NCBI GenBank assembly: GCA_015068245.1
Contig: SVKU01000005.1
Coordinates: 14,847 to 78,846, forward strand
Origin: Oscillospiraceae bacterium
Lineage (GTDB): Bacteria > Bacillota > Clostridia > Oscillospirales > Oscillospiraceae
Reading direction: 5' to 3'
DNA length: 64,000 nt
The notes under the pieces are model-generated. The model was not told the DNA's origin, did no database searches, and saw only the letters and a list, made by a program, of their open reading frames with translations. Shown piece after piece: positions 2,683-64,000 of the stretch (positions are counted from its first letter, which is position 1; each line of letters begins with the position of its first letter). Position numbers and translations under genes: made by a program.

Positions 2683-3897
2683 TTACTGCATTATATTGAA
2701 GAACTTGTCGTGAACCACCTGCATTGCTTTTTCGGAATCCTCTTCATCGATCAGGACGGAGACCTTTATCTCGCTGGTGGATATCATATGTATGTTGATA
2801 TTGGCTTCGTAAAGAGCCTCGAACATCAGTGCCGCTACGCCGGAGTTGTTTGCCATACCCGCTCCAACGATGCTGACCTTGGAAATAGTGTCGGTTGTAT
2901 TCATATGGTCAAAACCGATAAGGTGTTTCTTTTCTTCCAGAATACGGGCAGCTTCTGCAAGATTGTCTTTTTCCACGGTGAAGCTGATGTCTTTGGTGTT
3001 GCCTCGGCCGATGGACTGGAGAATGATATCAACGTTGATTTTTTCCTTTGCCAGCATGGAGAAAATTCGGTATGCGATACCGGGTTTGTCCTGCAAACCT
3101 ACCAGTGCTATACGGGCAATATTCTTATCGCAGGCTACGCCGCTTACATGTGTCTTTTCCAATTTTGCATCCTCCTTGACTATCGTACCCGGCTTTCCGG
3201 TAAAGCTGGAAAGCACCTCCAGGTTCATATTGTATGTTTTCGCCATTTCGACGGATCTGTTGTGAAGTACCTTTGCGCCCAGGGTGGCCAGTTCAAGCAT
3301 CTCATCGTGAGTTATCTCGTCCAGCTTTCTGGCATTTTTGATAACTCTGGGGTCGGCAGTGTAAACGCCGTCTACATCGGTGTAGATCTGGCACAGGTCT
3401 GCCTTAAGAGCAACCGCCAGAGCAACGGCTGTGGTATCGGAACCGCCGCGGCCGAGAGTTGTAACATCGTCGTATTTATTGACACCCTGGAAGCCGCAGA
3501 CCAGAACAATTTTGTTTCTGTCCAGCTCTTCCTGAATTCTGGTGCCGGAAACCTTTTTGATACGGGCGTTGCCGTAATGAGAACTGGTTTCCATACCCAC
3601 CTGCCAGCCGGTAAGGGATACAACCGGGAATCCCATTCTGCCGATGGCCATGGCCATAAGGGCTACGGATATCTGTTCACCGGTGGAAAGCAGCATATCC
3701 ATCTCACGTTTTGATGCTTTGGGATTTATTTCATTGGCCTTTTCAATAAGGTCATCTGTGGTGTCGCCCTGGGCAGACAAAACAACAACGACCTGATTCC
3801 CGGCCTTATATGTATTGGTTATGATTTCGGCAACGTGGTTTACCCGCTCCGCATTGGCTACAGATGAACCGCCGAACTTTTGGACTATCAGTCCCAT
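2683..3897 (-). CDS. lysC: aspartate kinase
   Basis: N-terminus MGLIVQKFGGSSVANAERV is the aspartokinase signature. The C-terminal half has tandem ACT-like regions. Last gene of the ACT-hom-lysC string. Confidence 0.93.
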   Translation of the reverse strand: MGLIVQKFGGSSVANAERVNHVAEIITNTYKAGNQVVVVLSAQGDTTDDLIEKANEINPKASKREMDMLLSTGEQISVALMAMAIGRMGFPVVSLTGWQVGMETSSHYGNARIKKVSGTRIQEELDRNKIVLVCGFQGVNKYDDVTTLGRGGSDTTAVALAVALKADLCQIYTDVDGVYTADPRVIKNARKLDEITHDEMLELATLGAKVLHNRSVEMAKTYNMNLEVLSSFTGKPGTIVKEDAKLEKTHVSGVACDKNIARIALVGLQDKPGIAYRIFSMLAKEKINVDIILQSIGRGNTKDISFTVEKDNLAEAARILEEKKHLIGFDHMNTTDTISKVSIVGAGMANNSGVAALMFEALYEANINIHMISTSEIKVSVLIDEEDSEKAMQVVHDKFFNIMQ

Positions 3898-8634: not shown

Positions 8635-8776
8635 TAAACATTTTCATGTATAATAGAGATTTACGTTATCAATTCTATTATACATGAATTTTTCTAATGT
8701 TCAATACAAGTTTTTGTAATTTTGGGGCTTGATTTTACTGAACATTTTAAGTATAATGCAGTTATAAATTTGATAT

Positions 8777-8795
8777 TGTAATGGAATGCATTACA
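8777..8795. promoter_or_regulatory. candidate LysR-type operator (inverted repeat)
   Basis: TGTAATG-gaatg-CATTACA is a perfect 7-bp inverted repeat in the divergent lysR/putP gap, 26 nt upstream of the putP ATG. Confidence 0.3.
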
Positions 8796-8820
8796 TTTAT
8801 TCATGCAAAGGAGAAGGAAT

Positions 8821-10275
8821 ATGAATTATAGTGAACTTGCGGTATTTATAATATATCTGCTTTTCATGGTAGGTATAGGCGTGTTCTTCTTTATCCGCTC
8901 CAAGGGCGGAAATGAAAAGGACTACTTCCTTGGCGGTCGTCAGATGGGCGCATGGGTTTCGGCTCTTTCCGCCGGCGCTTCCGATATGAGCGCATGGGTG
9001 CTTATGGGTCTTCCCGCCTCCATTTATGCTTACGGTATGGGGCAGACCTGGATAGCAATCGGTCTCGGCATTGGTTACGCTTTGAGTTGGATCTATGAAG
9101 CTCCCAGACTCCGCAAATTTTCAATCAGAGCCAACGACTCCATCACCATTCCCCAGTATCTTACCAACCGCTTTTTGTCCTCCAGCATGGCTCTGCAGAT
9201 AATCTGCGCTGTCATCTTCCTGTTTGCCTACACGATTTATGCAGCCTCCTCCATCAAAGCCTGCGGTACTCTGTTCAACACCGTTATAGGCATTGATGCA
9301 ACCACAGCAATGTACATTGCCGCTGTAATTATCATTGTATACACTTTCCTTGGCGGCTTCAGTGCCGTTTGCTGGACCGACTTCTTCCAGGGTCTGTTAA
9401 TGTTGGGTGCTCTCCTTATCGCCCCCATCTTTGCTGTGTTCGCTCTGGATACCACCGCTGCAAACACCGCCATGCCTGAAGGCTATTGGAACCTGTTCAC
9501 CAACTGGAAGGAGGTTATATCCGGTCTCGGCTGGGGTCTCGGTTACTTCGGTATGCCCCATATCATTATCCGCTTCATGTCCCTCAAGTCCGATAAGGAA
9601 CTGAAAAAATCTGCTAAAATCGGTATCAGCTGGACTGTTCTTATCCTTATATTCTCCGTAGCTGCCGGCTGCATCGGCCGCATGTTCCTGGGCTTTGACC
9701 AGGCCACTGCCGATAATTCTCTCGTATTCATCACCATGGTAAGAAAGATATTCCCCGGTGTTATCTCCGGCGTTCTTCTTTCCGCCATTCTGGCTGCTGC
9801 CATGAGCACTGCAGACTCTCAGCTGCTGGCTTCCGCCTCCGCTTTTGCCAACGACGTTTACAAGCCCGTTATCCGTAAAAACCAGTCCTCCGACAAAGAA
9901 ATGCTTTGGGCAGGACGTATCGTTGTTCTCATAATCGCAATCGTAGCCGTTATCATCGCTTCCAACCCCAATGCCGGCTCCATCATGGATCTGGTTTCCA
10001 ATGCCTGGGGCGTATTCGGCGCAGCATTTGGCCCTGCCATTATGCTGTCCCTGTTCTGGAAACGCTTCACTTTCGGCGGTGCTGTTGCAGGCATCATTGC
10101 AGGCGCTGCAGTTGATATTCTGTGGCTTGCTTTCCTTGCCGGTACCGGAATCTATGAGATTATCCCCGGTTTCATTGCCGGTCTGGTTGCCGCTGTAATT
10201 GTTTCCAAGCTCAGCAAGGCTCCCGGCAAAGACGTTGAGCAGCTCTTCGACGAAGCTGTTGCTCTGGAAGATTAA
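8821..10275 (+). CDS. putP: sodium:solute symporter family transporter, PutP-like (sodium/proline symporter)
   Basis: About 13 TM segments and SSF-family sequence. Start re-called to the ATG at 8821 (MNYSELAV...), which follows SD AAAGGAGAAGG. The track ATG at 8803 lies inside that SD. Confidence 0.85.
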   Translation: MNYSELAVFIIYLLFMVGIGVFFFIRSKGGNEKDYFLGGRQMGAWVSALSAGASDMSAWVLMGLPASIYAYGMGQTWIAIGLGIGYALSWIYEAPRLRKFSIRANDSITIPQYLTNRFLSSSMALQIICAVIFLFAYTIYAASSIKACGTLFNTVIGIDATTAMYIAAVIIIVYTFLGGFSAVCWTDFFQGLLMLGALLIAPIFAVFALDTTAANTAMPEGYWNLFTNWKEVISGLGWGLGYFGMPHIIIRFMSLKSDKELKKSAKIGISWTVLILIFSVAAGCIGRMFLGFDQATADNSLVFITMVRKIFPGVISGVLLSAILAAAMSTADSQLLASASAFANDVYKPVIRKNQSSDKEMLWAGRIVVLIIAIVAVIIASNPNAGSIMDLVSNAWGVFGAAFGPAIMLSLFWKRFTFGGAVAGIIAGAAVDILWLAFLAGTGIYEIIPGFIAGLVAAVIVSKLSKAPGKDVEQLFDEAVALED

Positions 10276-10339: not shown

Positions 10340-11128
10340 TCATTTAAATTCGTCGCTGAATTCGTCTATCTCGCTGAGGTCTTTCTTTCCTGCACGGAGC
10401 TTGCCGATAACAAACCATCCGCCTACCAGTACCACAACAACAATAAGAGGTACAACAACCTTTGCAAAGCTGAAACCGCTTTCCTCCAGTTCCTCGGCAA
10501 CGGTAGCACTGGGTTCAGGCTCCGGCTCCGGTGTGGCATTTGCTTTCTTTTCTTCTATCTCGGCATAGACTTGATCCTGATTCTTCAGAACCTCGGTGTC
10601 TTCCTCATCGACAAAGTAAATATAAACGCCGTCACCAAACCCCAAAGTACTGAAGTATTCAAGTATTTCCTCCAGAGTATCGGGTTCCGCAAACATATAA
10701 ACATCAACACGGTTTTCTGCGGGATTAATTTCATAGCGCTTGGTCTTGTACAGATTTATTATAACATACTGTGTTGAAACATGGCGGGCACCGATGGTGA
10801 TATAATACTGCATCAGTGTGGAATACGGAAGTTCAACCACTTCCCAGACCAATCCGTCATCAGAACCGAAAAAGTCGATGTATTCCTGCCTGTTTTCCGG
10901 GGTATCCTCTGTCAGGCAAACAACAATATTGTTGCTTTCGTCAACATACATGCCGCCAAAGGCTTCGGGATACACCTGCGCCTGACCGGACTCATCTTCC
11001 TCGTCCATAGGCAGGGATGCCATGTATTCGTCTATCTTTGCCTGTGCAGCCTCTGCGCTGTCGAACGCAGCAAACGCAGCGACAGGCATCATAAGCAGAA
11101 CAAGCAGCAAACAAATTACTCTTTTCAC
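10340..11128 (-). CDS. hypothetical secreted protein with a C-terminal membrane anchor
   Basis: Signal peptide MKRVICLLLVLLMMPVAAFA, an acidic TPEPEPEP linker, and a C-terminal TM (VVVPLIVVVVLVGGWFVIG). No family recognised. Confidence 0.6.
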   Translation of the reverse strand: MKRVICLLLVLLMMPVAAFAAFDSAEAAQAKIDEYMASLPMDEEDESGQAQVYPEAFGGMYVDESNNIVVCLTEDTPENRQEYIDFFGSDDGLVWEVVELPYSTLMQYYITIGARHVSTQYVIINLYKTKRYEINPAENRVDVYMFAEPDTLEEILEYFSTLGFGDGVYIYFVDEEDTEVLKNQDQVYAEIEEKKANATPEPEPEPSATVAEELEESGFSFAKVVVPLIVVVVLVGGWFVIGKLRAGKKDLSEIDEFSDEFK

Positions 11129-21289: not shown

Positions 21290-21488
21290 CTTGTTTCACC
21301 GTCATTATATTTTAAAAAAGTTGTCGCGAACGATAGGTCATCCGCAACGAAAACAGCTGACTTCTGGCAGCCGCGCCGATTGGCGCGCCAATTCAATTTT
21401 CATAGGCAGAATTCACTTCCGCCGTAAAATGTAAAATGGTACGAGGTCAGCAAGGTCAGCTTTGCTGATCTTTCTCTGACCGAAGTCC

Positions 21489-21525
21489 AAAAATAAAGCC
21501 GGTTTTAAAAAACCGGCTTTATTTT
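21489..21525 (-). terminator. intrinsic terminator directly after tRNA-Thr
   Basis: aaaaataaagccggtttt-aaaa-aaccggctttattttt is symmetric, so it could act bidirectionally. Confidence 0.8.
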
Positions 21526-21601
21526 TGGAGCTAGTAACGTGACTTGAACACGCGACCTGCTGATTACGAATCAGCTGCTCTACCAACTGAGCTATACTAG
21601 C
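21526..21601 (-). tRNA. tRNA-Thr (anticodon CGU), CCA encoded
   Basis: Minus strand reads GCTAGTA-TA-GCTC-AGTTGGTA-GAGC-A-GCTGA-TTCGTAA-TCAGC-AGGTC-GCGTG-TTCAAGT-CACGT-TACTAGC-T-CCA. This is a full 76-nt cloverleaf. Confidence 0.93.
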
Positions 21602-29555: not shown

Positions 29556-29642
29556 AATTAATAATTAATAGTTAATAATTAATATTGTAATGCGCAGCAT
29601 CCGAACATCCGAAACTATTAATTATTCATTATTAATTATTAA
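29556..29642. repeat. AT-rich inverted pair of heptamer arrays in the cysS leader
   Basis: The left arm is TAATTAA TAATTAA TAGTTAA TAATTAA (29556-29583). The right arm is its near-exact inverse (29615-29642). The central loop carries CATCCGAA x2 (29598-29613). A 20-mer, ctattaattattcattatta, is repeated exactly at 56895-56914. Confidence 0.85.
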
Positions 29643-29654
29643 CTGAAATAAATA

Positions 29655-29845
29655 CAGCCCGCCTCCGGCTTTCGCAAGAGGCGGGCATAATCGCTCGCGG
29701 TTCCACTCTCATTTATCACTTGTTGCCGGTAGATCCGGCCGAAAAATCTGCTCCGGGACGCACTTTCACTCTGTCCTCCGCAGGAACGCTTCCAGCCAAC
29801 GACGTTCCTTCTCTGTCCGGTTTCAATGAGTTACTCTTTCCCTTC
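29655..29845 (-). promoter_or_regulatory. T-box riboswitch leader, Cys (UGC) specifier, controlling cysS
   Basis: On the minus strand: an AGAGA element, a specifier-loop context GAAAG-UGC-G (codon at 29762..29760), and the T-box sequence AGAGTGGAACCGCGAG (29709..29694). The terminator is gcccgcctc-ttgcgaaagccg-gaggcgggc (29686..29657) plus tgtatttattt. Confidence 0.8.
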
Positions 29846-29896
29846 ATTGCAGTATATTCAATTCTGAAACAATCTTAGCATATTGTTAATTTTGTG

Positions 29897-33627: not shown

Positions 33628-33652
33628 GGAACGGTCAAGACCGTTCCCTACA
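33628..33652 (-). repeat. GTAG-headed hairpin repeat (REP-like singlet, C-type)
   Basis: Minus strand reads tGTAG-GGAACGGTC-TT-GACCGTTCC. The same unit occurs at 42901-42924 and as a doublet at 62143-62207. Confidence 0.8.
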
Positions 33653-33679
33653 ATACTGTTTGAGTTAACAGTTAACTGC

Positions 33680-34543: not shown

Positions 34544-34555
34544 TTAATTCTCCTT

Positions 34556-34590
34556 TTAGGTTTCAGGGATCAGGGTTCAGAGGTCAGGGA
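34556..34590 (-). repeat. heptamer array, 5 units, each ending in a stop triplet
   Basis: Minus strand reads TCCCTGA CCTCTGA ACCCTGA TCCCTGA AACCTAA and abuts the prmC SD (AAGGAG). Confidence 0.85.
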
Positions 34591-34646
34591 AATGCATCGA
34601 CTTCGTCGATGATTGAATTTGTTTGCAAATCACAGATTTATAAACT

Positions 34647-34667
34647 CATATCACTGACTACTGACTA
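34647..34667 (-). repeat. heptamer array, 3 units, directly after the DUF1385 gene stop
   Basis: Minus strand reads TAA-tttgg-TAGTCAG TAGTCAG TGATATG. Confidence 0.8.
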
Positions 34668-37750: not shown

Positions 37751-37775
37751 TGGCTCAGTTTCCTTTCGTATATGT

Positions 37776-37803
37776 TTAGGTTTCAGGGTACAGGGATCAG
37801 GTT
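37776..37803 (-). repeat. heptamer array, 4 units, same family as 34556-34590
   Basis: Minus strand reads AACCTGA TCCCTGT ACCCTGA AACCTAA, about 25 nt upstream of the response-regulator ATG. It shares CCCTGAAACCTAAA with the prmC copy. Confidence 0.8.
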
Positions 37804-37874
37804 AAAGAGTGTTGGTGTTCTTTTGCTTGGTGGTTACCGAAATTAACAATTAACTGCATCAGCAAAGCGATTGC

Positions 37875-39302: not shown

Positions 39303-39384
39303 ACTGAGCCTGCGAGGCAGGCGTGAGGATCCCCTGCAAAAGATGGGGATTTCTCCGTCAGCAAGCTGACGTTCGGAATGACAG
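39295..39384. repeat. cloverleaf-type intergenic element, copy A1
   Basis: Arms gctgtcatactgagc / gttcggaatgacag. Hairpins are cctgc-gag-gcagg, gaggatcccc-N9-ggggatttctcc and gtcagc-aa-gctgac. Confidence 0.8.
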
Positions 39385-42824: not shown

Positions 42825-42865
42825 ATTATATACCTCATTGGCAGTTAACAGTTAACAGTTATTGA

Positions 42866-42890
42866 GTTTTCAAATCTTCAATTTGAAAAC
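42866..42890. repeat. conserved 25-nt hairpin GTTTTCAAAT-N5-ATTTGAAAAC, copy 1
   Basis: 10-bp perfect stem with loop cttca. The second copy at 63057-63081 has an identical stem and loop cagcg. Confidence 0.85.
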
Positions 42891-42900
42891 TATTCCACAA

Positions 42901-42924
42901 GGAACGGTCAAGACCGTTCCCTAC
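42901..42924 (-). repeat. GTAG-headed hairpin repeat (REP-like singlet, C-type)
   Basis: Minus strand reads GTAG-GGAACGGTC-TT-GACCGTTCC, identical to the copy at 33628-33651. Confidence 0.8.
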
Positions 42925-42990
42925 GTTACAATAGGACAGAAAAGTGCAAAATTGATAGCCAACTGTTCACTGTTCATTGTTAACTGTTAA

Positions 42991-43893
42991 CTATTCAATT
43001 TCCTCCGCCAGCTGGACTATTTTCCTCAGCCGGTGGTTCAGAGTTGACTTTGTAATGGGAGGATCTGCCAAAGCAGCAAGTTCCGCTAATGATGCTTCGG
43101 GGTTTGCCATGCGCAGCAAAGCCGTTTCGTACAATTTTTCCGGCAGGCTGTCCAGTCCCTGAATCTTATGGATCTTGCTGATGGCCTGCATATGCTCGGC
43201 AGATGCGGCGATAGCCTTGTCGATATTGGCAGTCTCGCAGTTTACCCGGCGATTTACGTCGTTGATAAGTTCCTTTTCCAGCTTGGTGTTCATTATCTTC
43301 ATGGAGCTTACAGGTGCGCCGATAAGGGTAAGGATATCTTCGATATAATTGCTCTGCTTAAAGTAAGTTATCCTGCTGCCTGCCCGCTCCGTTTCCTTAG
43401 GCTCAAAGCCCATTTCCAGAAGCAGAGAATAAAGCTCACCGCTGACGCTTCTGTGGTTGGTCACAAGCTCCAGATGGTACCGCTTTTCCGGGTCGGTAAC
43501 GGAGCCTCCCGCAAGGAACACTCCCCTGAGAAAAGACACTTTGCAGCATTCGTCTTCAAGCATGGCAAGATTTATATGGTGGGACACATTTGTATCCCAG
43601 CTGTACCCAAAAGCCTGCAGGATCGCATCGTTTTTTTCTTTGTCGGTGACGGATACTATGAGCTTGCCGCCTTTCTTTTCGTCCGGCAGCGTGTCAGGCT
43701 CAAAGCCGAAAGCCTTTTTCATAAGCTTGGGCAGCCGTTCTGCAAAGGCACGGTTTTCGGTTATTATTTTGATCTCGTCTGATGTAAAGGTGTTACCATA
43801 GAGGAACGCTCCGTAGCATTCCGCAAGGGCACAGCACCTTTTATGGATGGCCACACGGCACATCTCGTCTTTTACTTCCGATGAAAATGACAT
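42991..43893 (-). CDS. whiA: DNA-binding protein WhiA
   Basis: 300 aa with a LAGLIDADG-like domain plus a C-terminal HTH (..KSTLNHRLRKI). Conserved rapZ-yvcK-whiA order. Confidence 0.93.
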   Translation of the reverse strand: MSFSSEVKDEMCRVAIHKRCCALAECYGAFLYGNTFTSDEIKIITENRAFAERLPKLMKKAFGFEPDTLPDEKKGGKLIVSVTDKEKNDAILQAFGYSWDTNVSHHINLAMLEDECCKVSFLRGVFLAGGSVTDPEKRYHLELVTNHRSVSGELYSLLLEMGFEPKETERAGSRITYFKQSNYIEDILTLIGAPVSSMKIMNTKLEKELINDVNRRVNCETANIDKAIAASAEHMQAISKIHKIQGLDSLPEKLYETALLRMANPEASLAELAALADPPITKSTLNHRLRKIVQLAEEIE

Positions 43894-44882: not shown

Positions 44883-44905
44883 ATATAACTTTCAACTTTC
44901 AGTTT

Positions 44906-45766
44906 TTAACTTCTCGAAAGGTCGCGATGGGTCACCGAGGTTTCGTAGCCACGTGATTTGATAAACGTTCCCAACTGAGAAGCTATGGTAACGCTGCGGT
45001 GATGACCTCCGGTACAGCCGATGGCGATAGTCAGCAGGCTTTTGCCCTCTTCGGTGTACAGTGGCAGCAGGAAGTTCAGCATATCCTTGAGCTTTTCCAG
45101 AAAATCGTTGGTCTGGGTGAAGGACATGACGAACTCATGGACAGGGGCGTCCAGCCCGCTCAAATCACGCATACTGTCGATATAGTAAGGGTTAGGCAAA
45201 AACCTTACATCAAACACCAGATCCGCATCAATGGGCACGCCGTATTTGAACCCAAAGGACGTGACGTTTACCGCCATGGTGCGTTCCCTTTGTTCGGAAG
45301 CAAAAAGCCTGATTATCTCACCCCGGAGTTTGCTTGTGGAAAAGGCGGTGGTGTCGATTATATGGTCGGCGCGGTCGCGCACAGGGTGCAGTATCTCCCG
45401 TTCACGGCGAACAGCGTCCACAAGGCTGGTGCCATCTATGGTAAGCGGGTGCTTTCTGCGGGTTTCTTTATAGCGGTTGATTATGGTTTCTTCGGAGGCT
45501 TCCACGAAAACTATCTTATAGTCGCAAGCTGACTTTTCCAGTTCTTTCAAAGACTGGAAAAGAGACTCAAAGTTCTGCCCTCCTCTGACATCGGTAACCA
45601 ATGCTACCCTGTCGTACCTGCCCTTGGTGGCAAGGCACACGCCTGCCAGCTGAGGAATAAGATCCACAGGCATATTATCCACGCAGTAGAAACCAAGGTC
45701 CTCAAGATTTGATGCGACTTTACTTTTTCCCGCTCCGGACAAGCCGGAGATTATCAGAAATTTCAT
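44906..45766 (-). CDS. rapZ: RNase adapter protein RapZ (YvcJ)
   Basis: Walker A SGLSGAGKS at the N-terminus, and C-terminal CTGGHHRSV. Confidence 0.93.
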   Translation of the reverse strand: MKFLIISGLSGAGKSKVASNLEDLGFYCVDNMPVDLIPQLAGVCLATKGRYDRVALVTDVRGGQNFESLFQSLKELEKSACDYKIVFVEASEETIINRYKETRRKHPLTIDGTSLVDAVRREREILHPVRDRADHIIDTTAFSTSKLRGEIIRLFASEQRERTMAVNVTSFGFKYGVPIDADLVFDVRFLPNPYYIDSMRDLSGLDAPVHEFVMSFTQTNDFLEKLKDMLNFLLPLYTEEGKSLLTIAIGCTGGHHRSVTIASQLGTFIKSRGYETSVTHRDLSRS

Positions 45767-48139: not shown

Positions 48140-48200
48140 GCGGCAAACCATGACCCACAGCAAAAAACGCCAAAAGGCCAATATCATTAAGCAAAAGAAA

Positions 48201-48293
48201 GCTGTCATTCCGAACATTGCGCAAGCAATGGAGGAATCCCCATCATATGCAGGGGATCTCTCCGTCGGCTCCGCCGACGTTCGAGATGACAGC
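48201..48293. repeat. cloverleaf-type intergenic element, copy A2
   Basis: Arms gctgtcattccgaac / gttcgagatgacagc. Hairpins are cattgc-gcaa-gcaatg, gaggaatcccc-N9-ggggatctctcc and gtcgg-ctccg-ccgac. Confidence 0.85.
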
Positions 48294-48326
48294 TTATCTT
48301 AACGACCTTGCCTTTTGGCCTTCTTT

Positions 48327-51493: not shown

Positions 51494-51533
51494 GGCATGA
51501 CCATTCCTTTCTTTTGTGTAAATTAATAATCAT

Positions 51534-51590
51534 GCTGTCATTTCGAACCGGTGCTCACACCGGTGAGAAATCCCCATCTTACGAAAGGTT
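51534..51590. repeat. decayed or truncated cloverleaf-type element, copy A4
   Basis: It keeps the left arm gctgtcatttcgaac, the first hairpin ccggtg-ctca-caccgg, and the 5' half of the central hairpin gagaaatccccatctt. The 3' half is degenerate. Confidence 0.6.
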
Positions 51591-54312: not shown

Positions 54313-54393
54313 GGTTTTATATTTCCTTTACTTGTGTCGTTCTGATATGATATCATATTATTGTTTAATTAACAATCTTTGTTTTATCCCAAT

Positions 54394-54464
54394 GTAGGGC
54401 GGGGGCTTGCTCCCGCCGAGAAAACCCAATTGTCGAACACGGCGGGAGCAAGCCCCCGCCCTAC
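54394..54464. repeat. perfect inverted doublet of GTAG-headed hairpins (REPIN-like, B-type)
   Basis: GTAGGGCGGGGGCTTGCTCCCGCC (54394-54417), a 23-nt spacer, then the exact reverse complement (54441-54464). Confidence 0.85.
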
Positions 54465-54500
54465 ACCATGCAACACAATAAACAACAGGAGCAATCGCCA

Positions 54501-56683: not shown

Positions 56684-56720
56684 AATAAGACTCCCTCTGA
56701 TGAGCAATATCATTAAGTTA

Positions 56721-56832
56721 AGCTGTCATCTCGAACGCCGACCTTGTCGGCGGAGAGATCCCCATCTTAAGAAGGGGATTTCTCCCTCGCTCCGGTCAGC
56801 AAGCTGACCGACCTCGGTTCGAAATGGCAGCT
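56721..56832. repeat. cloverleaf-type intergenic element, copy A5 (best preserved)
   Basis: Arms agctgtcatctcgaac / gttcgaaatggcagct. Hairpins are gccgac-cttg-tcggc, ggagagatcccc-N9-aggggatttctcc and ggtcagc-aa-gctgacc. Confidence 0.85.
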
Positions 56833-56890
56833 TCTTCTTATCTTAATATCATTGCTCTGATGATGGGGCTTTTCGCTTTCTCCCTTGGCT

Positions 56891-56925
56891 TTATCTATTA
56901 ATTATTCATTATTATCTATTAATTA
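56891..56925. repeat. AT-rich heptamer array (21-nt super-period)
   Basis: TTATCTA TTAATTA TTCATTA TTATCTA TTAATTA. It shares an exact 20-mer with 29615-29634. Confidence 0.8.
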
Positions 56926-56972: not shown

Positions 56973-57001
56973 TTGACAAAATGTGCAAAACAATATAATA
57001 T
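56973..57001 (+). promoter_or_regulatory. candidate sigma-A promoter of potABCD
   Basis: TTGACA (56973-56978), 17 nt, TAATAT (56996-57001), leaving a leader of about 90 nt. Confidence 0.5.
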
Positions 57002-57098
57002 TCAATCATAACATGGAACCCGTCCGCCCTGCGGTTGGGAAATCGGTTCATCAGGGTGTCGGATGACCTTCGGCGCCTGCATCTGAGGAGGAGGATAA

Positions 57099-60884: not shown

Positions 60885-60891
60885 AGAATAG

Positions 60892-60919
60892 GGGTTAGGA
60901 TTTAGGGATGAGGGGTTAG
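60892..60919 (+). repeat. heptamer array, 4 units, each ending in a stop triplet
   Basis: GGGTTAG GATTTAG GGATGAG GGGTTAG. Confidence 0.75.
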
Positions 60920-61366: not shown

Positions 61367-62080
61367 ATGAACACCGAATCCAACAGGCTCATGGAGCTTT
61401 ACATACGCAAGGTGCTTCGGGAAGTACAGGCAGGTAAGCCCACGAAAAACAAGATACGCAGCCAGCTGGAGGACCATATTCTCTGCGCTGTGGAGGATTC
61501 CCATCTGCCGCCGGAAAAGGCAGTCAAGCAGGCGGTGAAAGGTCTTGGCGATCCGATAACCATTGGCAAGGAGTATAACAGAACTTACGCCATACATATG
61601 GGTTTTGCCGACTGGGCAAGGCTGATGGGTCCATGGCTTGTGGCACCACTGTTTGCGCTGGCGTTTATACTTGATCTCATTGAATACAACATTATTTTTT
61701 CATCATGGGTACTGCTGTCAAAATCCGGTCTTTACGCACTGATTACCGGTACTTTTATCGGTGAGCGATTCAGCAAAAAGACACTTTGCATTTACTCTTG
61801 CATTCTGCCGCCGATAGTTTTTCTGGCTGCGGTTGCGGCTGCCCATTATGCCACTTATGTGCTGCACAGCGGAGCTTTTAATGTTTTGCGGATAATGTCC
61901 AGAGATTTGGAAACCATCATCGGAGCAGTTCTGTGGGTATTTATCTTTTCGATGTCCTGCCTGTGGCAATACAGCGAAATAGCTTTCACCACCCACAAAA
62001 GGAAAACCTTTCAAAGCCTGGTGTTGGTGATTCTCGTATCACTGATGTGCGTATTTCTCGGTTTGAGTCTGAAACGCTAA
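61367..62080 (+). CDS. membrane protein with a DUF1700-like N-terminal domain (PadR-associated)
   Basis: ATG at 61367 after GGAGGTG. The N-terminus is (..YIRKVLREV....IRSQLEDHI...GDPITIGKEY), followed by about 5 TM segments. This is the usual partner gene downstream of padR. Confidence 0.65.
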   Translation: MNTESNRLMELYIRKVLREVQAGKPTKNKIRSQLEDHILCAVEDSHLPPEKAVKQAVKGLGDPITIGKEYNRTYAIHMGFADWARLMGPWLVAPLFALAFILDLIEYNIIFSSWVLLSKSGLYALITGTFIGERFSKKTLCIYSCILPPIVFLAAVAAAHYATYVLHSGAFNVLRIMSRDLETIIGAVLWVFIFSMSCLWQYSEIAFTTHKRKTFQSLVLVILVSLMCVFLGLSLKR

Positions 62081-62142
62081 GCAGTCAAACACGTGTCACC
62101 GTGGGCAGCTTCCATACAATTTATATTCAATCCCTTTGTTTT

Positions 62143-62207
62143 GTAGGGAACGGCCTTGACCGTTCCTCCTGCTGACAAAAATCGGAACGGTCAAGGCCGT
62201 TCCCTAC
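62143..62207. repeat. perfect inverted doublet of GTAG-headed hairpins (REPIN-like, C-type)
   Basis: GTAGGGAACGGCCTTGACCGTTCC (62143-62166), a 17-nt spacer, then the exact reverse complement (62184-62207). Confidence 0.85.
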
Positions 62208-62232
62208 GATATAGTTTTCAATCTCAAAAAGC

Positions 62233-62255
62233 GGCGGGAGAAGCCCCCGCCCTAC
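62233..62255 (-). repeat. GTAG-headed hairpin repeat (REP-like singlet, B-type)
   Basis: Minus strand reads GTAGGGCGGGGGCTTCTCCCGCC, one nucleotide shorter than the halves of the doublet at 54394-54464. Confidence 0.75.
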
Positions 62256-62282
62256 ACCTATTACTACTTCAGGAAACAAAAC

Positions 62283-63020
62283 ATGAAAAACTACAAACTT
62301 ACAATACAATATGACGGCAGTCGGTACAACGGCTGGCAGGTTCAAGGAAACACTGACAACACTGTTCAGGGCAAGATTCAAAATGTTCTGAGCCGTATGG
62401 ATGACCGTGAGGTGGAAGTCCACGGTTCCGGCCGCACCGATGCAGGCGTCCACGCCAGAGGTCAGATAGCCAATGTGAAGCTGCAAACCGAACCCACCTG
62501 CGCAGAAATTCTGGCTTACTGCGCCCAATACCTGCCCACGGATATTGCCGTCATCGCCGTTGAGGAAGCCTCGGAACGCTTCCACGCAAGGCTCAATGCG
62601 CAGAAAAAGTGCTACGTTTACCGTATCCACAACAGCCCCGTGCCAAACGTGTTTGAAAGAAAATACCTGTATCAGATGACCGGCTGCTTTGACCTGAATG
62701 CCATGAAAAGTGCCGCACGGCATCTCGTGGGCACCCACGATTTCCGCTCTTTCTGCGGTCTGCGGCGGTTCAAAAAGTCCACCGTCAGGACGGTGTATTC
62801 CATCGACATTGACAAAATCGGTGACGAAATACGCATAACCTATGTTGGCAATGGGTTTCTGAACCTTATGGTCAGAATTATGACAGGCACTTTGGTCGAA
62901 GTGGGTCTCGGTCAGCGAAATGCAGATGATATACCCGCCGTTCTTGCCGCCCTTGACCGCGATGCCGCAGGCATTACCATGCCGCCGGAAGGGCTGTGTT
63001 TGCAATGGGTGGAGTATTAA
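62283..63020 (+). CDS. truA: tRNA pseudouridine(38-40) synthase TruA
   Basis: MKNYKLTIQYDGSRYNGWQVQ... with the catalytic GRTDAGVHA. Confidence 0.95.
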   Translation: MKNYKLTIQYDGSRYNGWQVQGNTDNTVQGKIQNVLSRMDDREVEVHGSGRTDAGVHARGQIANVKLQTEPTCAEILAYCAQYLPTDIAVIAVEEASERFHARLNAQKKCYVYRIHNSPVPNVFERKYLYQMTGCFDLNAMKSAARHLVGTHDFRSFCGLRRFKKSTVRTVYSIDIDKIGDEIRITYVGNGFLNLMVRIMTGTLVEVGLGQRNADDIPAVLAALDRDAAGITMPPEGLCLQWVEY

Positions 63021-63055
63021 AGTAATAAGTAATAGTGAATAGTGAAGAAGTGAGG
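63021..63055 (+). repeat. heptamer array, 5 units, starting at the first nucleotide after the truA stop
   Basis: TAA|AGTAATA AGTAATA GTGAATA GTGAAGA AGTGAGG. Every unit contains TAA or TGA, and all three frames are closed within 22 nt. Confidence 0.85.
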
Positions 63056-63056
63056 T

Positions 63057-63081
63057 GTTTTCAAATCAGCGATTTGAAAAC
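63057..63081. repeat. conserved 25-nt hairpin GTTTTCAAAT-N5-ATTTGAAAAC, copy 2
   Basis: The stem is identical to 42866-42890; the loop is cagcg. Confidence 0.85.
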
Positions 63082-63122
63082 AAAACTAAATGGGTCTCGC
63101 GCAACACCACAGAACTTTGCCG

Positions 63123-63157
63123 CCCTGATCCCTGATCCCTGATCCCTGATCCCCTAT
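63123..63157 (+). repeat. perfect heptamer microsatellite CCCTGAT x4 plus one degenerate unit
   Basis: ccctgat x4 (63123-63150), then cccctat. It is the reverse-complement family of 34556-34590 and 37776-37803. Confidence 0.9.
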
Positions 63158-63162
63158 GTAAT

Positions 63163-63205
63163 AAAAATCCGCACTGATCGCAAAGCGAATCAGCGCGGAT
63201 TTTTA
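63163..63205. terminator. bidirectional intrinsic terminator (thrS / truA)
   Basis: aaaaatccgcactgatcgc-aaa-gcgaatcagcgcggattttt. The T-run abuts the thrS stop. Confidence 0.8.
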
Positions 63206-64000
63206 TTACATGACTTTATTGTCGATTTCTTCTTTGATCTTTGCCATGAAGTCGGCAAGTTCCATGGTGCCTTCGTCTCCGCCTGCACGGGTACGGACAG
63301 CTACGGTACCGGCTTCGGCTTCCTTATCGCCCACAACCAGCATGTAGGGGATCTTCTGGCCGATAGCTTCACGGAGCTTGTAGCCAAGCTTTTCGCTGCG
63401 GTAGTCGCCTTCGACACGGATATTGGCAGCGTCAAGTGCAGCTTCAACCTTTTTGGCATACTCGTGAGCACGGTCGGTGATAGGAACGACCTTTACCTGT
63501 ACAGGAGCCAGCCAGGTGGGGAATGCGCCGGCAAAATGCTCGGTCATAACGCCGATAAAGCGTTCGATGGAACCGTAAACAACACGGTGGATCATAACAG
63601 GACGATGCTTCTGACCGTCTGCACCGGTGTATTCCAGTTCGAAACGCTCGGGCATCTGGAAGTCCAGCTGGATGGTACCGCACTGCCATGTACGGCCAAG
63701 GCAGTCTTTCAGATGGAAGTCGATCTTGGGACCATAAAATGCACCGTCGCCGGGGTTAAGGATATACTCAATGTTTCTGGCTTCCAGCACGCTCTTAAGG
63801 GTGTTTTCGGAGAACTCTCTCATTTCTTCGCTGCCGATGAAATCTTCGGGACAGGTGGACAGCTCGACCATGTATTCAAAACCGAAAGCGGAATAGACCT
63901 TGTCGATCAGGTCGATGACCTTGCCGATTTCTTCTTCGGTCTGCTCAGCGGTCATGAAGATGTGAGCGTCGTCCTGAGTGAAGCAGCGGACACGGAACAG
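63206..64000 (-). CDS. thrS: threonine--tRNA ligase, C-terminal part (5' end beyond the window)
   Basis: The frame stays open to position 64000 (..LFRVRCFTQDDAHIFMTAEQ..), which is class II motif 2/3 territory. A C-terminal anticodon-binding domain follows (..VPITDRAHEYAKKV..). The M at 63955 in the track is internal. Confidence 0.93.
   Translation of the reverse strand: MFRVRCFTQDDAHIFMTAEQTEEEIGKVIDLIDKVYSAFGFEYMVELSTCPEDFIGSEEMREFSENTLKSVLEARNIEYILNPGDGAFYGPKIDFHLKDCLGRTWQCGTIQLDFQMPERFELEYTGADGQKHRPVMIHRVVYGSIERFIGVMTEHFAGAFPTWLAPVQVKVVPITDRAHEYAKKVEAALDAANIRVEGDYRSEKLGYKLREAIGQKIPYMLVVGDKEAEAGTVAVRTRAGGDEGTMELADFMAKIKEEIDNKVM

Follow-up and report, generated by a model that had tools for sequence, protein, structure and literature searches.

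The question raised by this locus is whether the stop triplets that recur in the short heptanucleotide arrays of its intergenic gaps were selected to end translation, or whether they result from how and where such repeats arise. An earlier note on the window (i.e., the whole stretch of 64,000 nucleotides analysed) had proposed the arrays as candidate all-frame stop cassettes. All the arrays it listed were found at the positions and with the units it gave, their placement relative to the truA, whiA, DUF1385, prmC and potD genes is as it described, and both of the exceptions it named are real (the unit TCCCTGT at 37790-37796, and the array at 56891-56925); one array, at 44885-44912, was missing from its list. 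The arrays, with the strand on which their units are read, are as follows:

29556-29583, minus strand: ATTAATT ATTAACT ATTAATT ATTAATT; right foldback arm, 57 nt upstream of the cysS start
29615-29642, minus strand: TTAATAA TTAATAA TGAATAA TTAATAG; left foldback arm in the cysS leader, just past the T-box terminator
33664-33677, minus strand: two units, AGTTAAC TGTTAAC; 2 nt past the prmC stop, followed by the REP-like element 33628-33651
34556-34590, minus strand: TCCCTGA CCTCTGA ACCCTGA TCCCTGA AACCTAA; ends at the prmC ribosome-binding site
34647-34667, minus strand: TAGTCAG TAGTCAG TGATATG; 5 nt past the DUF1385 stop, abutting the hairpin 34621-34645
37776-37803, minus strand: AACCTGA TCCCTGT ACCCTGA AACCTAA; 25 nt upstream of a response-regulator start
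37842-37855, minus strand: two units, AGTTAAT TGTTAAT; after an FG-GAP gene
42842-42862, minus strand: ATAACTG TTAACTG TTAACTG; right arm, in inverted orientation to 42963-42990, with the dnaE start 17 nt downstream
42963-42997, minus strand: TGAATAG (the whiA end with its stop), then TTAACAG TTAACAA TGAACAG TGAACAG; left foldback arm
44885-44912, minus strand: AAGTTAA AAACTGA AAGTTGA AAGTTAT; fills the rapZ-yvcK gap, unit 1 being the rapZ 3' end including its TAA
56891-56925, plus strand: TTATCTA TTAATTA TTCATTA TTATCTA TTAATTA; most stops on the minus strand, 3' of a terminator-like site and 5' of a promoter-like site (56973-57001)
60892-60919, plus strand: GGGTTAG GATTTAG GGATGAG GGGTTAG; after potD, flanked by two terminator-like hairpins
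63021-63055, plus strand: AGTAATA AGTAATA GTGAATA GTGAAGA AGTGAGG; first unit directly 3' of the truA TAA, other end abutting the hairpin 63057-63081
63123-63157, plus strand: four CCCTGAT units and CCCCTAT; adjoins the bidirectional truA/thrS terminator

The period of these repeats is specific. In 9.9 kb of intergenic DNA, perfect two-unit repeats occur 17 times at a lag of 7 vs 0.69 in shuffles (maximum 5 of 200), and the neighbouring lags give 1 vs 2.4 (lag 6) and 1 vs 0.12 (lag 8); the comparison with shuffled intergenic DNA and with periods 6 and 8 suggested in the earlier note thus yields an excess at 7 only. TRF finds 16 period-7 arrays in the window vs 0-3 at any other single period between 4 and 12, the period-7 arrays being arranged head-to-tail in 2-5 copies with 73-100% matches. 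Arrays of at least 2.8 copies number 7 in the 64-kb window vs 14 in 1.45 Mb (80 other loci); a genome-contig collection searched with DnaE, the best match being 57% identical and no close relative, served purely as background. Intergenic location holds for all 19 arrays with about three units or more, the only matches inside genes being two-unit ones of 14-15 nt. No Rfam family was matched by arrays or hairpins.

The units belong to about 7-9 families dispersed over loci, several of them with 2-4 copies. The “roughly ten independent arrays” on which the case for selection had been built are therefore a few dispersed families instead, with an effective sample of about 7-9. The array after truA has a 36-nt copy 4.6 kb away, outside the window (63019-63054 vs 67623-67658, 94% identical); 29615-29634 and 56895-56914 are identical at 20/20 positions; 34555-34568 equals 37775-37788, and the end of 37776-37803 (...CCCTGAAACCTAAA) is common to 34556-34590. 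The relationship also extends across strands, with 34556-34590 related to the reverse complement of 63123-63149, and 60892-60919 sharing its family with a stretch outside the window, the reverse complement of 69709-69740, which 60890-60914 resembles. Copies of a family at different loci keep the same order of internal variants.

The arrays differ between genomes. In relatives 80-86% identical, the orthologous gaps have either no arrays or different ones, i.e., arrays are gained, replaced and resized at this distance. The whiA-dnaE gap measures 166 nt here; in relative L090, where different arrays have taken the place of these, it is 259 nt long, and in L093 it is 44 nt long without any array; the DUF1385-prmC gap measures 129 nt here vs 39 nt without an array in L103. 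No period-7 arrays occur in L093 and L103, and none in 16.9 kb of a more distant relative (L109, 73%). Individually, 44885-44912 is absent in L093 and L090, 37776-37803 and 33664-33677 are absent in L103, and 56891-56925 has no counterpart in L105. Assembly GCA_964384255.1 has no arrays at six orthologous gaps, the absence being claimed for the six gaps compared; that this assembly is wholly array-free was ruled out, as L105 showed it to carry GGGTTAG/CCCTAA arrays at the potD and truA-thrS gaps.

The arrays common to relatives are only those at potD (orthologous arrays in L107 and L105), at truA-thrS (CCCCTAA/ATCCTAA in L108, CCCCTAA/TCCCTAA in L105) and behind the FG-GAP gene. At the first two, units vary between species; at the third, the trailing array has two units here and three in L090 (ATTTAAT AATTAAT AATTAAT), a slippage-type difference. 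An array identical to 63021-63055 occurs in L108, but its 100% identity was dropped as a sign of constraint, since this contig has 1.9x coverage and a mosaic identity of 64-100%, and is possibly chimeric or recombinant. Close relatives lack these arrays, or have others, at the orthologous gaps, so the genes work without them. Besides, the ancestral gaps are only 18-44 nt long, so that any insertion sparing the ribosome-binding site lands beside a stop codon, and enrichment of arrays right after stop codons, the positional test proposed earlier, is uninformative. For annotation, such gaps should be taken as repeat mosaics and not as conserved regulatory sequence.

With moderate confidence, we place the arrays, as tandem repeats of a heptanucleotide, in the STRR / long simple-sequence-repeat (SSR) class known from bacteria, and see them as recent colonists of non-coding gaps within a single narrow clade of uncultured Ruminococcaceae/Oscillospirales. 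For the most part, their stop codons look like a side effect of the way the repeats originate and of the places where they do so. A seed heptamer would become an array by 7-nt replication slippage or template switching, and pre-formed arrays and hairpin modules may spread jointly by copy-and-paste or recombination; arrays would survive solely outside open reading frames because a 7-nt change shifts the frame. Ongoing slippage is something we infer rather than observe, as more than 20 same-strain assemblies hold no copy-number polymorphism. Such an origin, in which gene ends seed the slippage and hairpin modules accompany the dispersal, is testable, and it leaves the exact period of 7 unaccounted for.

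For arrays in contact with a gene end, the last heptamer of the gene, including its stop, would have served as seed, as at whiA and rapZ. The terminal heptamer of whiA is in register with its array and 6/7 identical to it, while 0/73 other gene ends match as well; that of rapZ matches the array units at 6/7, equalled by only 2.7% of other gene ends. The truA terminal heptamer matches at 3/7, out of strict register with its array. That every unit carries a stop at whiA and rapZ is thus explained by descent, because the stop-bearing last heptamer of the gene is unit zero; at least two arrays visibly grew in this manner, and seeding at gene ends offers a cheap account of stop-rich units. Several families (TTAA, TAATTA, TTAGGG/CCCTAA) have stops on both strands by virtue of their sequence, and in a compact genome arrays beside coding ends may be tolerated only if they terminate translation. 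Closure of all three frames would then be a matter of arithmetic and not a selected function, because 7 is not a multiple of 3.

Dispersal may involve a second kind of element. Several arrays lie beside small hairpins:

34621-34645: degenerate H1 hairpin, GTTTGCAAATCacaGATTTATAAAC, with 3 mismatches
42866-42890: copy of hairpin H1, GTTTTCAAATCttcAATTTGAAAAC
42901-42924, minus strand: REP-like element, GTAGGGAACGGTCTTGACCGTTCC
63057-63081: hairpin H1, GTTTTCAAATCagcGATTTGAAAAC; only one of its flanks carries a heptamer array

H1, a hairpin predicted by folding, has three copies in the window vs 0 expected, and a compensated variant in L090 (GTTTTCGAATC..GATTCGAAAAC); an array flanks it on one side in 3/3 window copies, and also in L090, L108 and L101. 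The REP-like element has four copies (33628-33651, 42901-42924, 62143-62166 and 62184-62207; 0 expected), the last two forming an inverted doublet. The features that define a REP (small size, dispersal, extragenic position, palindromic sequence and a conserved 5' GTAG motif) were found in these neighbouring hairpins and not in the arrays. Under a strict definition, a hairpin lies within 5 nt of 26% of arrays vs 12% of random intergenic placements, which is not significant, and the association of arrays with hairpins is reported for H1 adjacency only. A search for the hairpin GTTTTCRAATCNNNGATTYGAAAAC in a set of metagenome contigs that excludes the metagenomes of the window itself returned only two unrelated loci, one of which (L101, an rRNA operon) served as comparison.

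The hairpins and the inverted arrangement of some arrays bear on a first alternative, in which the arrays are repeats at or near the ends of miniature mobile elements (foldback or MITE-like) and are recognised by a transposase or recombinase, solo arrays being remnants. Inverted left and right arrays do surround a core in the cysS leader and in the whiA-dnaE and tRNA-IVP gaps; in the predicted folds, 29615-29642 pairs with 29556-29583 (z = -5.0; 27 nt at 93%) and the arm 42963-42997 pairs with 42842-42862 (z = -6.3). In L105, two element copies in opposite orientations share a 66-nt core plus array arm at 88% identity, both bounded by inverted GGGTTAG/CCCTAA arrays, and filled vs empty sites are seen between species. 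However, unit sequences vary so widely between elements that a single binding protein is hard to fit, several left/right pairs are non-complementary (e.g., truA, FG-GAP-RR), no target-site duplications could be defined, and the rapZ array looks generated in place. The 82 kb examined contain no transposase gene or other dispersal machinery, the called genes being without a recorded transposase domain, and no RAYT gene was seen there either. We regard this alternative as unlikely.

The stop triplets themselves were counted against several expectations. On the sense strand, 62/78 units carry a stop vs 41.1 expected from within-unit permutation, and on the antisense strand 43/78 vs 40.9 under the same null, a count to be read with the caveat that units are not independent; inside the window, about 90% of units have a sense-strand stop. 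The chance figure of about one in five per heptamer given in the earlier note is too low: tandemised non-array intergenic heptamers carry a stop in 33% (sense) and 31% (antisense) of cases, and permuting the bases of each unit gives 53%. The property of closing all three frames does hold, for 11/19 arrays on the sense strand vs 4/19 on the antisense strand; among ordinary intergenic windows 21-35 nt long, the share is 1-7%. Six arrays have stops on the sense strand only, and three on the antisense strand only.

The claim that a stop is the only conserved feature of the units was not confirmed: mismatches amount to 12.7% in stop columns vs 16.8% in other columns (Fisher p=0.31), and of the variant triplets at the consensus stop position, 7 remain stops whereas 11 do not. 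Neither is the register constant, since it breaks in 63021-63055 and in unit 3 of 60892-60919. Beyond the window, stops in most sense units are found in only 2 of five arrays, and in heptamer arrays of other genomes sense stops appear in about 3/6 informative cases.

These counts bear on whether the arrays can be seen as selected all-frame stop cassettes, ending readthrough, frameshifted or spurious translation in any frame and insulating neighbouring cistrons. The sense excess and the three-frame closure favour such a role, as do the arrays judged to lie within mRNA, all with a stop-bearing consensus. Orthologue comparison adds interconversion of TGA, TAA and TAG in the truA-thrS array and a TAG-to-TGA change in the third unit of the potD array, and the rRNA-spacer arrays of L101 lack sense stops. 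The four sense-stop-poor arrays all lie outside mRNAs, as a translation-linked constraint would predict; this counts against the by-product reading, and so does the fact that seeding and family structure explain the sense-stop excess only partly.

Against selection, the families are few and non-independent, stop columns are no better conserved than others, out-of-sample arrays comply as poorly as described, close relatives do without arrays in the orthologous gaps, and the stop codon as seed accounts for the gene-end pattern. Moreover, a systematic study of bacteria detected no selection for extra stop codons (PMC6764699), and the classic repeats GGGAATC, GGGGATT and CCCCAGT have no stops, nor has the STRR1 unit. 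Of the retention of stops claimed by the earlier note, the excess over a composition-matched null on the sense strand stands, and its attribution to selection does not, given the few families and stop columns that drift like the rest. The idea is thus weakened and not refuted, because a residual sense bias is left unexplained, and the case for selection on stops is weak. We consider stop cassettes unlikely to quite unlikely, and the narrower version, in which in-transcript arrays are selected for sense stops as frame-independent terminators or insulators and those out of transcripts are free to lose them, quite unlikely. If true, the idea would be important, giving STRR-like repeats a role in terminating translation or insulating cistrons from each other; the present evidence is not strong enough to bear it out.

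Still less probable is that, as multivalent sites in the mRNA, the arrays are bound by a protein of the S1, Csp or CsrA-like kind, which would tune translation or stability, by analogy with the proposal made for the TAACTGA repeats of Beggiatoaceae (MacGregor 2015, PMC4679880). Many arrays do lie inside transcripts, 0-25 nt from start or stop codons, and the TTAACTG arrays match TAACTGA at 6/7; yet there are at least seven unrelated unit families, arrays also lie outside transcripts and on either strand, close relatives with the same genes have none, and the flanking genes share no common function. Very improbable, finally, is an action of the G-tract families (TCAGGG, TTAGGG) through a G-quadruplex or i-motif, by analogy with a suggestion made for GGGAATC and GGGGAYT repeats: the minus strand of 63123-63157 (four ATCAGGG units, a G-tract array) has one G3-4 tract per heptamer over at least four units, with five G3-4 tracts at 4-nt spacing, and the orientation at 34556, 37776 and 60892 fits the reported preference (PMC4692102), but such an action would cover at most 4-5/19 arrays, most of which have fewer than four G3 tracts (three each in 34556-34590 and 60892-60919, the other arrays falling short of a G4-type pattern), and no function was found even in Xanthomonas (PMC4692102).

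The STRR / SSR reading places the window within a phenomenon that is long noticed and unexplained, as heptanucleotide tandem repeats are known from cyanobacteria, Xanthomonas, Burkholderia and Beggiatoaceae. The STRR heptanucleotides of heterocystous cyanobacteria were reportedly described by Mazel in 1990, and we know of no function proposed and established for STRR-like repeats since then. Like STRR and long SSRs, the present arrays consist of 7-nt tandem units forming short arrays, with several families per genome and many intergenic loci, and, as in long SSRs, it is period 7 that is singled out for over-representation. Unlike STRR, they are very short (2-6 units), with AT- and TNA-rich units, and often form inverted arms around REP-like hairpins. 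As cited in PMC4679880 and PMC4692102, Mrazek 2007 found that heptamers outnumber every other class of long SSR in many prokaryotes, and proposed polymerase slippage as their origin.

The closest single parallel in sequence is offered by the TAACTGA repeats of marine Beggiatoaceae, cyanobacteria and Bacteroidetes (MacGregor 2015, PMC4679880), which share with our arrays the heptameric unit, the 2-6 copies and the intergenic location, and which often lie just 5' of start codons. In forward orientation, TAACTGA repeats close every reading frame with a stop, a limit on their location that was pointed out by the author (PMC4679880). The window unit TTAACTG matches TAACTGA at six of seven positions; exact TAACTGA in tandem was not found, the best tandem matches having 2 mismatches in 14 nt (TAACTGTTAACTGT). 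The systems differ in that many unit families occur here vs one there; of our arrays, 4-5 lie 12-25 nt upstream of starts, and equally many just past stops.

The G-rich heptamers GGGAATC of Xanthomonas and GGGGA(C/T)T of Nostoc (Rehm 2015, PMC4692102) are likewise intergenic, near open reading frames and sometimes in inverted pairs. Their G-rich strand is the non-coding strand upstream of genes and the coding strand downstream, and their length and sequence vary among related species (PMC4692102). Their units, however, have no stop triplet on either strand, unlike the window arrays, and only the TCAGGG and TTAGGG families resemble them, most arrays here having too few G3 tracts.

REP, BIME and REPIN elements are short, extragenic and palindromic, and carry a 5' GTAG(G) motif (PMC3116915). 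The window hairpins are like them in being dispersed, sometimes as inverted doublets (62143-62207), within intergenic mosaics with other small motifs; REPs are not tandem heptamers, unlike the arrays, and the link between arrays and hairpins is one of adjacency only. Fail-safe stop codons and the ambush hypothesis embody the same idea as the stop cassettes, namely that extra stops in or out of frame cut the cost of readthrough or frameshift, but these are statistical tendencies of ordinary sequence and not repeat cassettes. Clostridia are not among the heptamer-repeat hosts named in PMC4679880 or PMC4692102, and the window extends the phenomenon to an uncultured, Ruminococcaceae-like lineage of this class.

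All arrays described in the earlier note were recovered with their units at the coordinates given, in the gene contexts it had assigned (truA, whiA, DUF1385, prmC and a potD-like binding protein), and one that had been overlooked was added:

44885-44912, minus strand, AAGTTAA AAACTGA AAGTTGA AAGTTAT, filling the rapZ-yvcK gap

At a low TRF threshold the window contains 16 period-7 arrays, whereas the other periods between 4 and 12 yield 0-3 apiece; with at least 2.8 copies required, there are 7 arrays in these 64 kb versus 14 in 1.45 Mb from 80 loci of other genomes. The comparison with shuffled intergenic DNA and periods 6 and 8, which the earlier note had proposed, gave a specific excess: in 9.9 kb of intergenic DNA there are 17 perfect two-unit repeats at lag 7 versus 0.69 in shuffles (maximum 5 of 200), 1 versus 2.4 at lag 6 and 1 versus 0.12 at lag 8. 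An assembly artefact is excluded, since the window sequence recurs at 99.97-100% identity in more than 20 assemblies from JGI and ENA. The host belongs to uncultured Clostridia (best DnaE match among GTDB species representatives, only 57% identical); an identical TruA is filed at NCBI under 'Ruminococcaceae bacterium'. Through contigs encoding window proteins, the sequence was extended to coordinates -9350 to 73020 with called genes; here, each of the 19 arrays with about three units or more lies between genes, and inside genes only two-unit matches (14-15 nt) occur. The arrays are a period-7-specific, non-coding class of tandem repeat. Five arrays lie outside the window and served as an out-of-sample set, unseen when the earlier note was made:

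-9064 to -9027, array
65219-65241, array
67567-67601, array
67622-67663, array
69709-69740, array

When intergenic DNA was compared all-against-all for array copies, the recurring ones were found to keep the same order of internal variants:

63019-63054 and 67623-67658, 94% identical over 36 nt
29615-29634 and 56895-56914, 20/20 identical, odd unit TTATTCA included
60890-60914, matching the reverse complement of 69709-69740
34563-34589, matching the reverse complement of 63123-63149
Arrays preceding prmC and the response-regulator gene, common end ...CCCTGAAACCTAAA

The arrays therefore form about 7-9 families with dispersed copies, and not ten or more independent events. In intergenic mosaics, these few families stand alongside REP-like hairpins. 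Other small repeats share the array-bearing gaps: hairpin GTTTTCAAATCnnnGATTTGAAAAC occurs in three copies, all flanked on one side by an array, and a REP-like element in four, two of which form a REPIN-like inverted doublet upstream of truA; variants of this element (GTAGGGTCACGGCGTGCCGTGACC) occur in the relative L090 and near 67230, outside the window. A structured, MITE-like repeat, roughly 100 nt long and bounded by inverted ends (TGTCATTTCGAAC...GAGAAATCCCCATCTT / AAGATGGGGATT...GTTCGGAATGACA), is dispersed in at least seven copies over 82 kb, and the copy at 65197-65306 holds the array CTGCCCC CTGCAAC CTGCCCC in its central loop.

33628-33651, 42901-42924, 62143-62166 and 62184-62207, REP-like element GTAGGGAACGG(T/C)CTTGACCGTTCC, 5' GTAGGG and then a hairpin
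39328-39384, 48198-48302, 51532-51580 and 56713-56833, approximately 100-nt repeat, in the window
-2658 to -2558, 65197-65306 and 72457-72516, approximately 100-nt repeat, outside the window

Left and right array pairs are frequent around such hairpin or repeat cores. In the cysS leader and in the whiA-dnaE gap, the left arm is an inverted repeat of the right one, and structure prediction pairs the two as the closing stem of a foldback (z = -5.0 and -6.3, respectively); the two arrays of the tRNA-IVP gap are mutually inverted. The cysS foldback sits between the cysS start codon and the terminator of a T-box leader (29674-29856, minus strand; 65.5 bits, E = 4.5e-14), which is missed at the gathering threshold because the curated Rfam cut-off is 93. 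Elsewhere, a further intergenic short repeat family (54393-54418, 54440-54467 and 62232-62258; 26-28 nt, 96-100% identity, one pair inverted) was observed, as well as a perfect 21-bp inverted repeat with a 2-nt loop (TCCAAAAATAAAGCCGGTTTT / AAAACCGGCTTTATTTTTGGA, 21486-21529), directly adjoining the tRNA gene at 21529-21601 (minus strand).

Relatives were compared at about 86% nucleotide identity (L090; WhiA 94%), at about 80% (L093, L103 and L105, contigs of one MAG, GCA_964384255.1) and at intermediate values (L107 and L108). The whiA-dnaE gap, 166 nt long here, holds other arrays and hairpins in L090, where it spans 259 nt; in L093 it spans 44 nt and holds none. The DUF1385-prmC gap measures 129 nt here versus 39 nt in the MAG, which has no arrays in its FG-GAP-response regulator, rapZ-yvcK and post-prmC gaps. 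No period-7 array was found in 16.9 kb of L109, a 73% relative. Three arrays are common to several species and vary in their units or in how many copies they have:

Downstream of the FG-GAP gene, 2 units here versus 3 in L090
After potD, GGGTTAG GATTTAG GGATGAG GGGTTAG here; variants in L107 and L105
Before the truA/thrS terminator, CCCTGAT x4 here; CCCCTAA/ATCCTAA in L108; CCCCTAA/TCCCTAA in L105

As arrays are missing, different or resized in the gaps of relatives, they are lineage-specific with rapid turnover, acquired and reshaped inside a narrow clade, and the flanking genes work without them in sister species. L105 also contains two copies of an element in opposite orientations (8640-8930 and 10739-10972), sharing a 66-nt core plus array arm at 88% identity and each flanked by inverted GGGTTAG/CCCTAA arrays; it resembles a foldback or MITE-like element ending in heptamer arrays. 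As a general account, arrays as ends of mobile elements recognised by a protein are unlikely.

In 50-nt steps along L108, identity to window positions 61700-63400 swings between 64% and 100%: near-identity is seen in the gaps and in the array-bearing truA 3' end, and about 85% in the truA body. This contig (1.9x coverage) may be recombinant or chimeric. The promoter and roughly 100-nt leader of the potABCD-like operon (56973-57098) are almost identical in L105, versus about 80-84% for coding DNA; possible compensatory changes are present, no Rfam match was obtained at E <= 0.1, and the leader is a candidate for an unrecognised cis-regulatory RNA.

The earlier note had read the arrays as candidate stop cassettes closing all frames, with a stop retention that looked selected. 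In the direction of the flanking gene (sense), 62 of 78 units hold a stop triplet versus 41.1 predicted by within-unit base permutation, and on the opposite strand 43 versus 40.9. All three frames are closed in 11/19 arrays in sense versus 4/19 in antisense; the figure for ordinary intergenic windows of 21-35 nt is 1-7%. The sense excess stands; the statistics put forward for selection were too optimistic. The chance of a stop per heptamer, put at 20%, is actually 33% in sense and 31% in antisense among tandemised real non-array intergenic heptamers of this genome. Nor is the stop kept while other positions drift, as had been claimed: mismatches to array consensus amount to 12.7% in stop columns and 16.8% in the others (p=0.31), and variant triplets at the consensus stop position are still stops in 7 cases and not in 11. 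Several families (TTAA, TAATTA, TTAGGG/CCCTAA, TAGTCAG) have stops on both strands, and single-strand stops are in sense in six arrays and in antisense in three. Two of the five out-of-sample arrays obey the stop rule (67622, 69709) and three do not; heptamer arrays of other genomes show sense stops in about 3 of 6 informative cases, and a consensus-level sense stop was found in 0/4 spacer arrays checked in L101, an unrelated metagenomic rRNA operon. A systematic study that detected no selection for extra stops in bacteria (PMC6764699) lowers the prior for such a role, and we consider selected cassettes decidedly unlikely. The remaining point for a link to translation is post hoc: the stop-poor arrays lie outside mRNAs in 4/4 cases, families not being collapsed.

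56891-56925, upstream of a promoter-like site
-9064, upstream of a promoter-like site
67567-67601, downstream of two tRNA genes plus a terminator hairpin
65219-65241, inside another repeat

Every rRNA-operon spacer of L101 (tRNA, 23S and 5S genes) contains heptamer arrays, and the hairpin that flanks arrays in the window, GTTTTCAAATCtgcGATTTGAAAAC, lies there too, at 3747-3771, directly upstream of 5S rRNA and with an (N)CAAAG(N) array ahead of it.

62-93, 181-213, 430-451, 3431-3458 and 3714-3742, heptamer arrays of L101

Gene ends may themselves have supplied stops. The last heptamer of whiA, TGAATAG, is in register with the following array and 6/7 identical to its units, a fit equalled by 0/73 other gene ends; terminal AAGTTAA of rapZ is likewise in register and 6/7 identical (a fit shared by 2.7% of the other gene ends), and L093 rapZ has the same C-terminus and stop before an ordinary 18-nt gap. 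The stop codon is thus unit zero of both arrays, and later units would carry a stop because they were copied from it. The truA end fits in only 3/7 positions, outside strict register; its array is one of the copies of a dispersed family. The proteins are as long as their homologues (TruA 245 aa, PrmC 287 aa, DUF1385 315 aa; WhiA is one residue shorter), so the arrays neither truncated nor extended proteins. Ancestral gaps were only 18-44 nt, so any insertion leaving the RBS intact has to fall beside the stop codon, and the abutment can be explained with no targeting.

On balance, we lean towards slippage-grown, hairpin-dispersed repeats whose all-frame closure is arithmetic, as it follows whenever a unit holds one stop. 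A seed heptamer would grow by 7-nt slippage or template switching; inverted arms may be element termini or products of template switching across a hairpin, and ready-made arrays would spread together with hairpin modules. A 7-nt change shifts the frame, which would confine arrays to non-coding DNA. Sites for an RNA-binding protein are a very improbable alternative, and G-quadruplex or i-motif effects of the G-tract families are most improbable of all.

The arrays are best filed in the known heptanucleotide-repeat class, here in a Clostridia lineage. The cyanobacterial short tandemly repeated repetitive sequences (STRRs) reportedly comprise three heptanucleotide families in Calothrix (a 1990 description by Mazel), and very small hairpin repeats are said, by Elhai et al. 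in 2008, to be embedded in Nostoc heptamer repeats. Among the long SSRs of many prokaryotes, heptamers are reported to be the most abundant class, and slippage of the polymerase has been proposed as the cause (Mrazek 2007, as cited in PMC4679880 and PMC4692102). TAACTGA repeats of Beggiatoaceae, cyanobacteria and Bacteroidetes have 2-6 copies, mostly just upstream of starts; their author noted that forward repeats place stops in all frames, restricting possible positions, which is the closest published statement to the cassette idea, although as a constraint and not a function (PMC4679880). The exact TAACTGA unit was not found here, the nearest being TAACTGT. GGGAATC/GGGGA(C/T)T repeats of Xanthomonas and Nostoc, without stops or known function, share with the TCAGGG/TTAGGG families closeness to ORFs, occasional inverted pairs, orientation preference and between-species variation (PMC4692102). 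Within this class, the present arrays are useful because their gain, loss and turnover are visible between close relatives, two incorporate the stop-bearing last heptamer of a gene, and a residual sense-strand stop bias is present.
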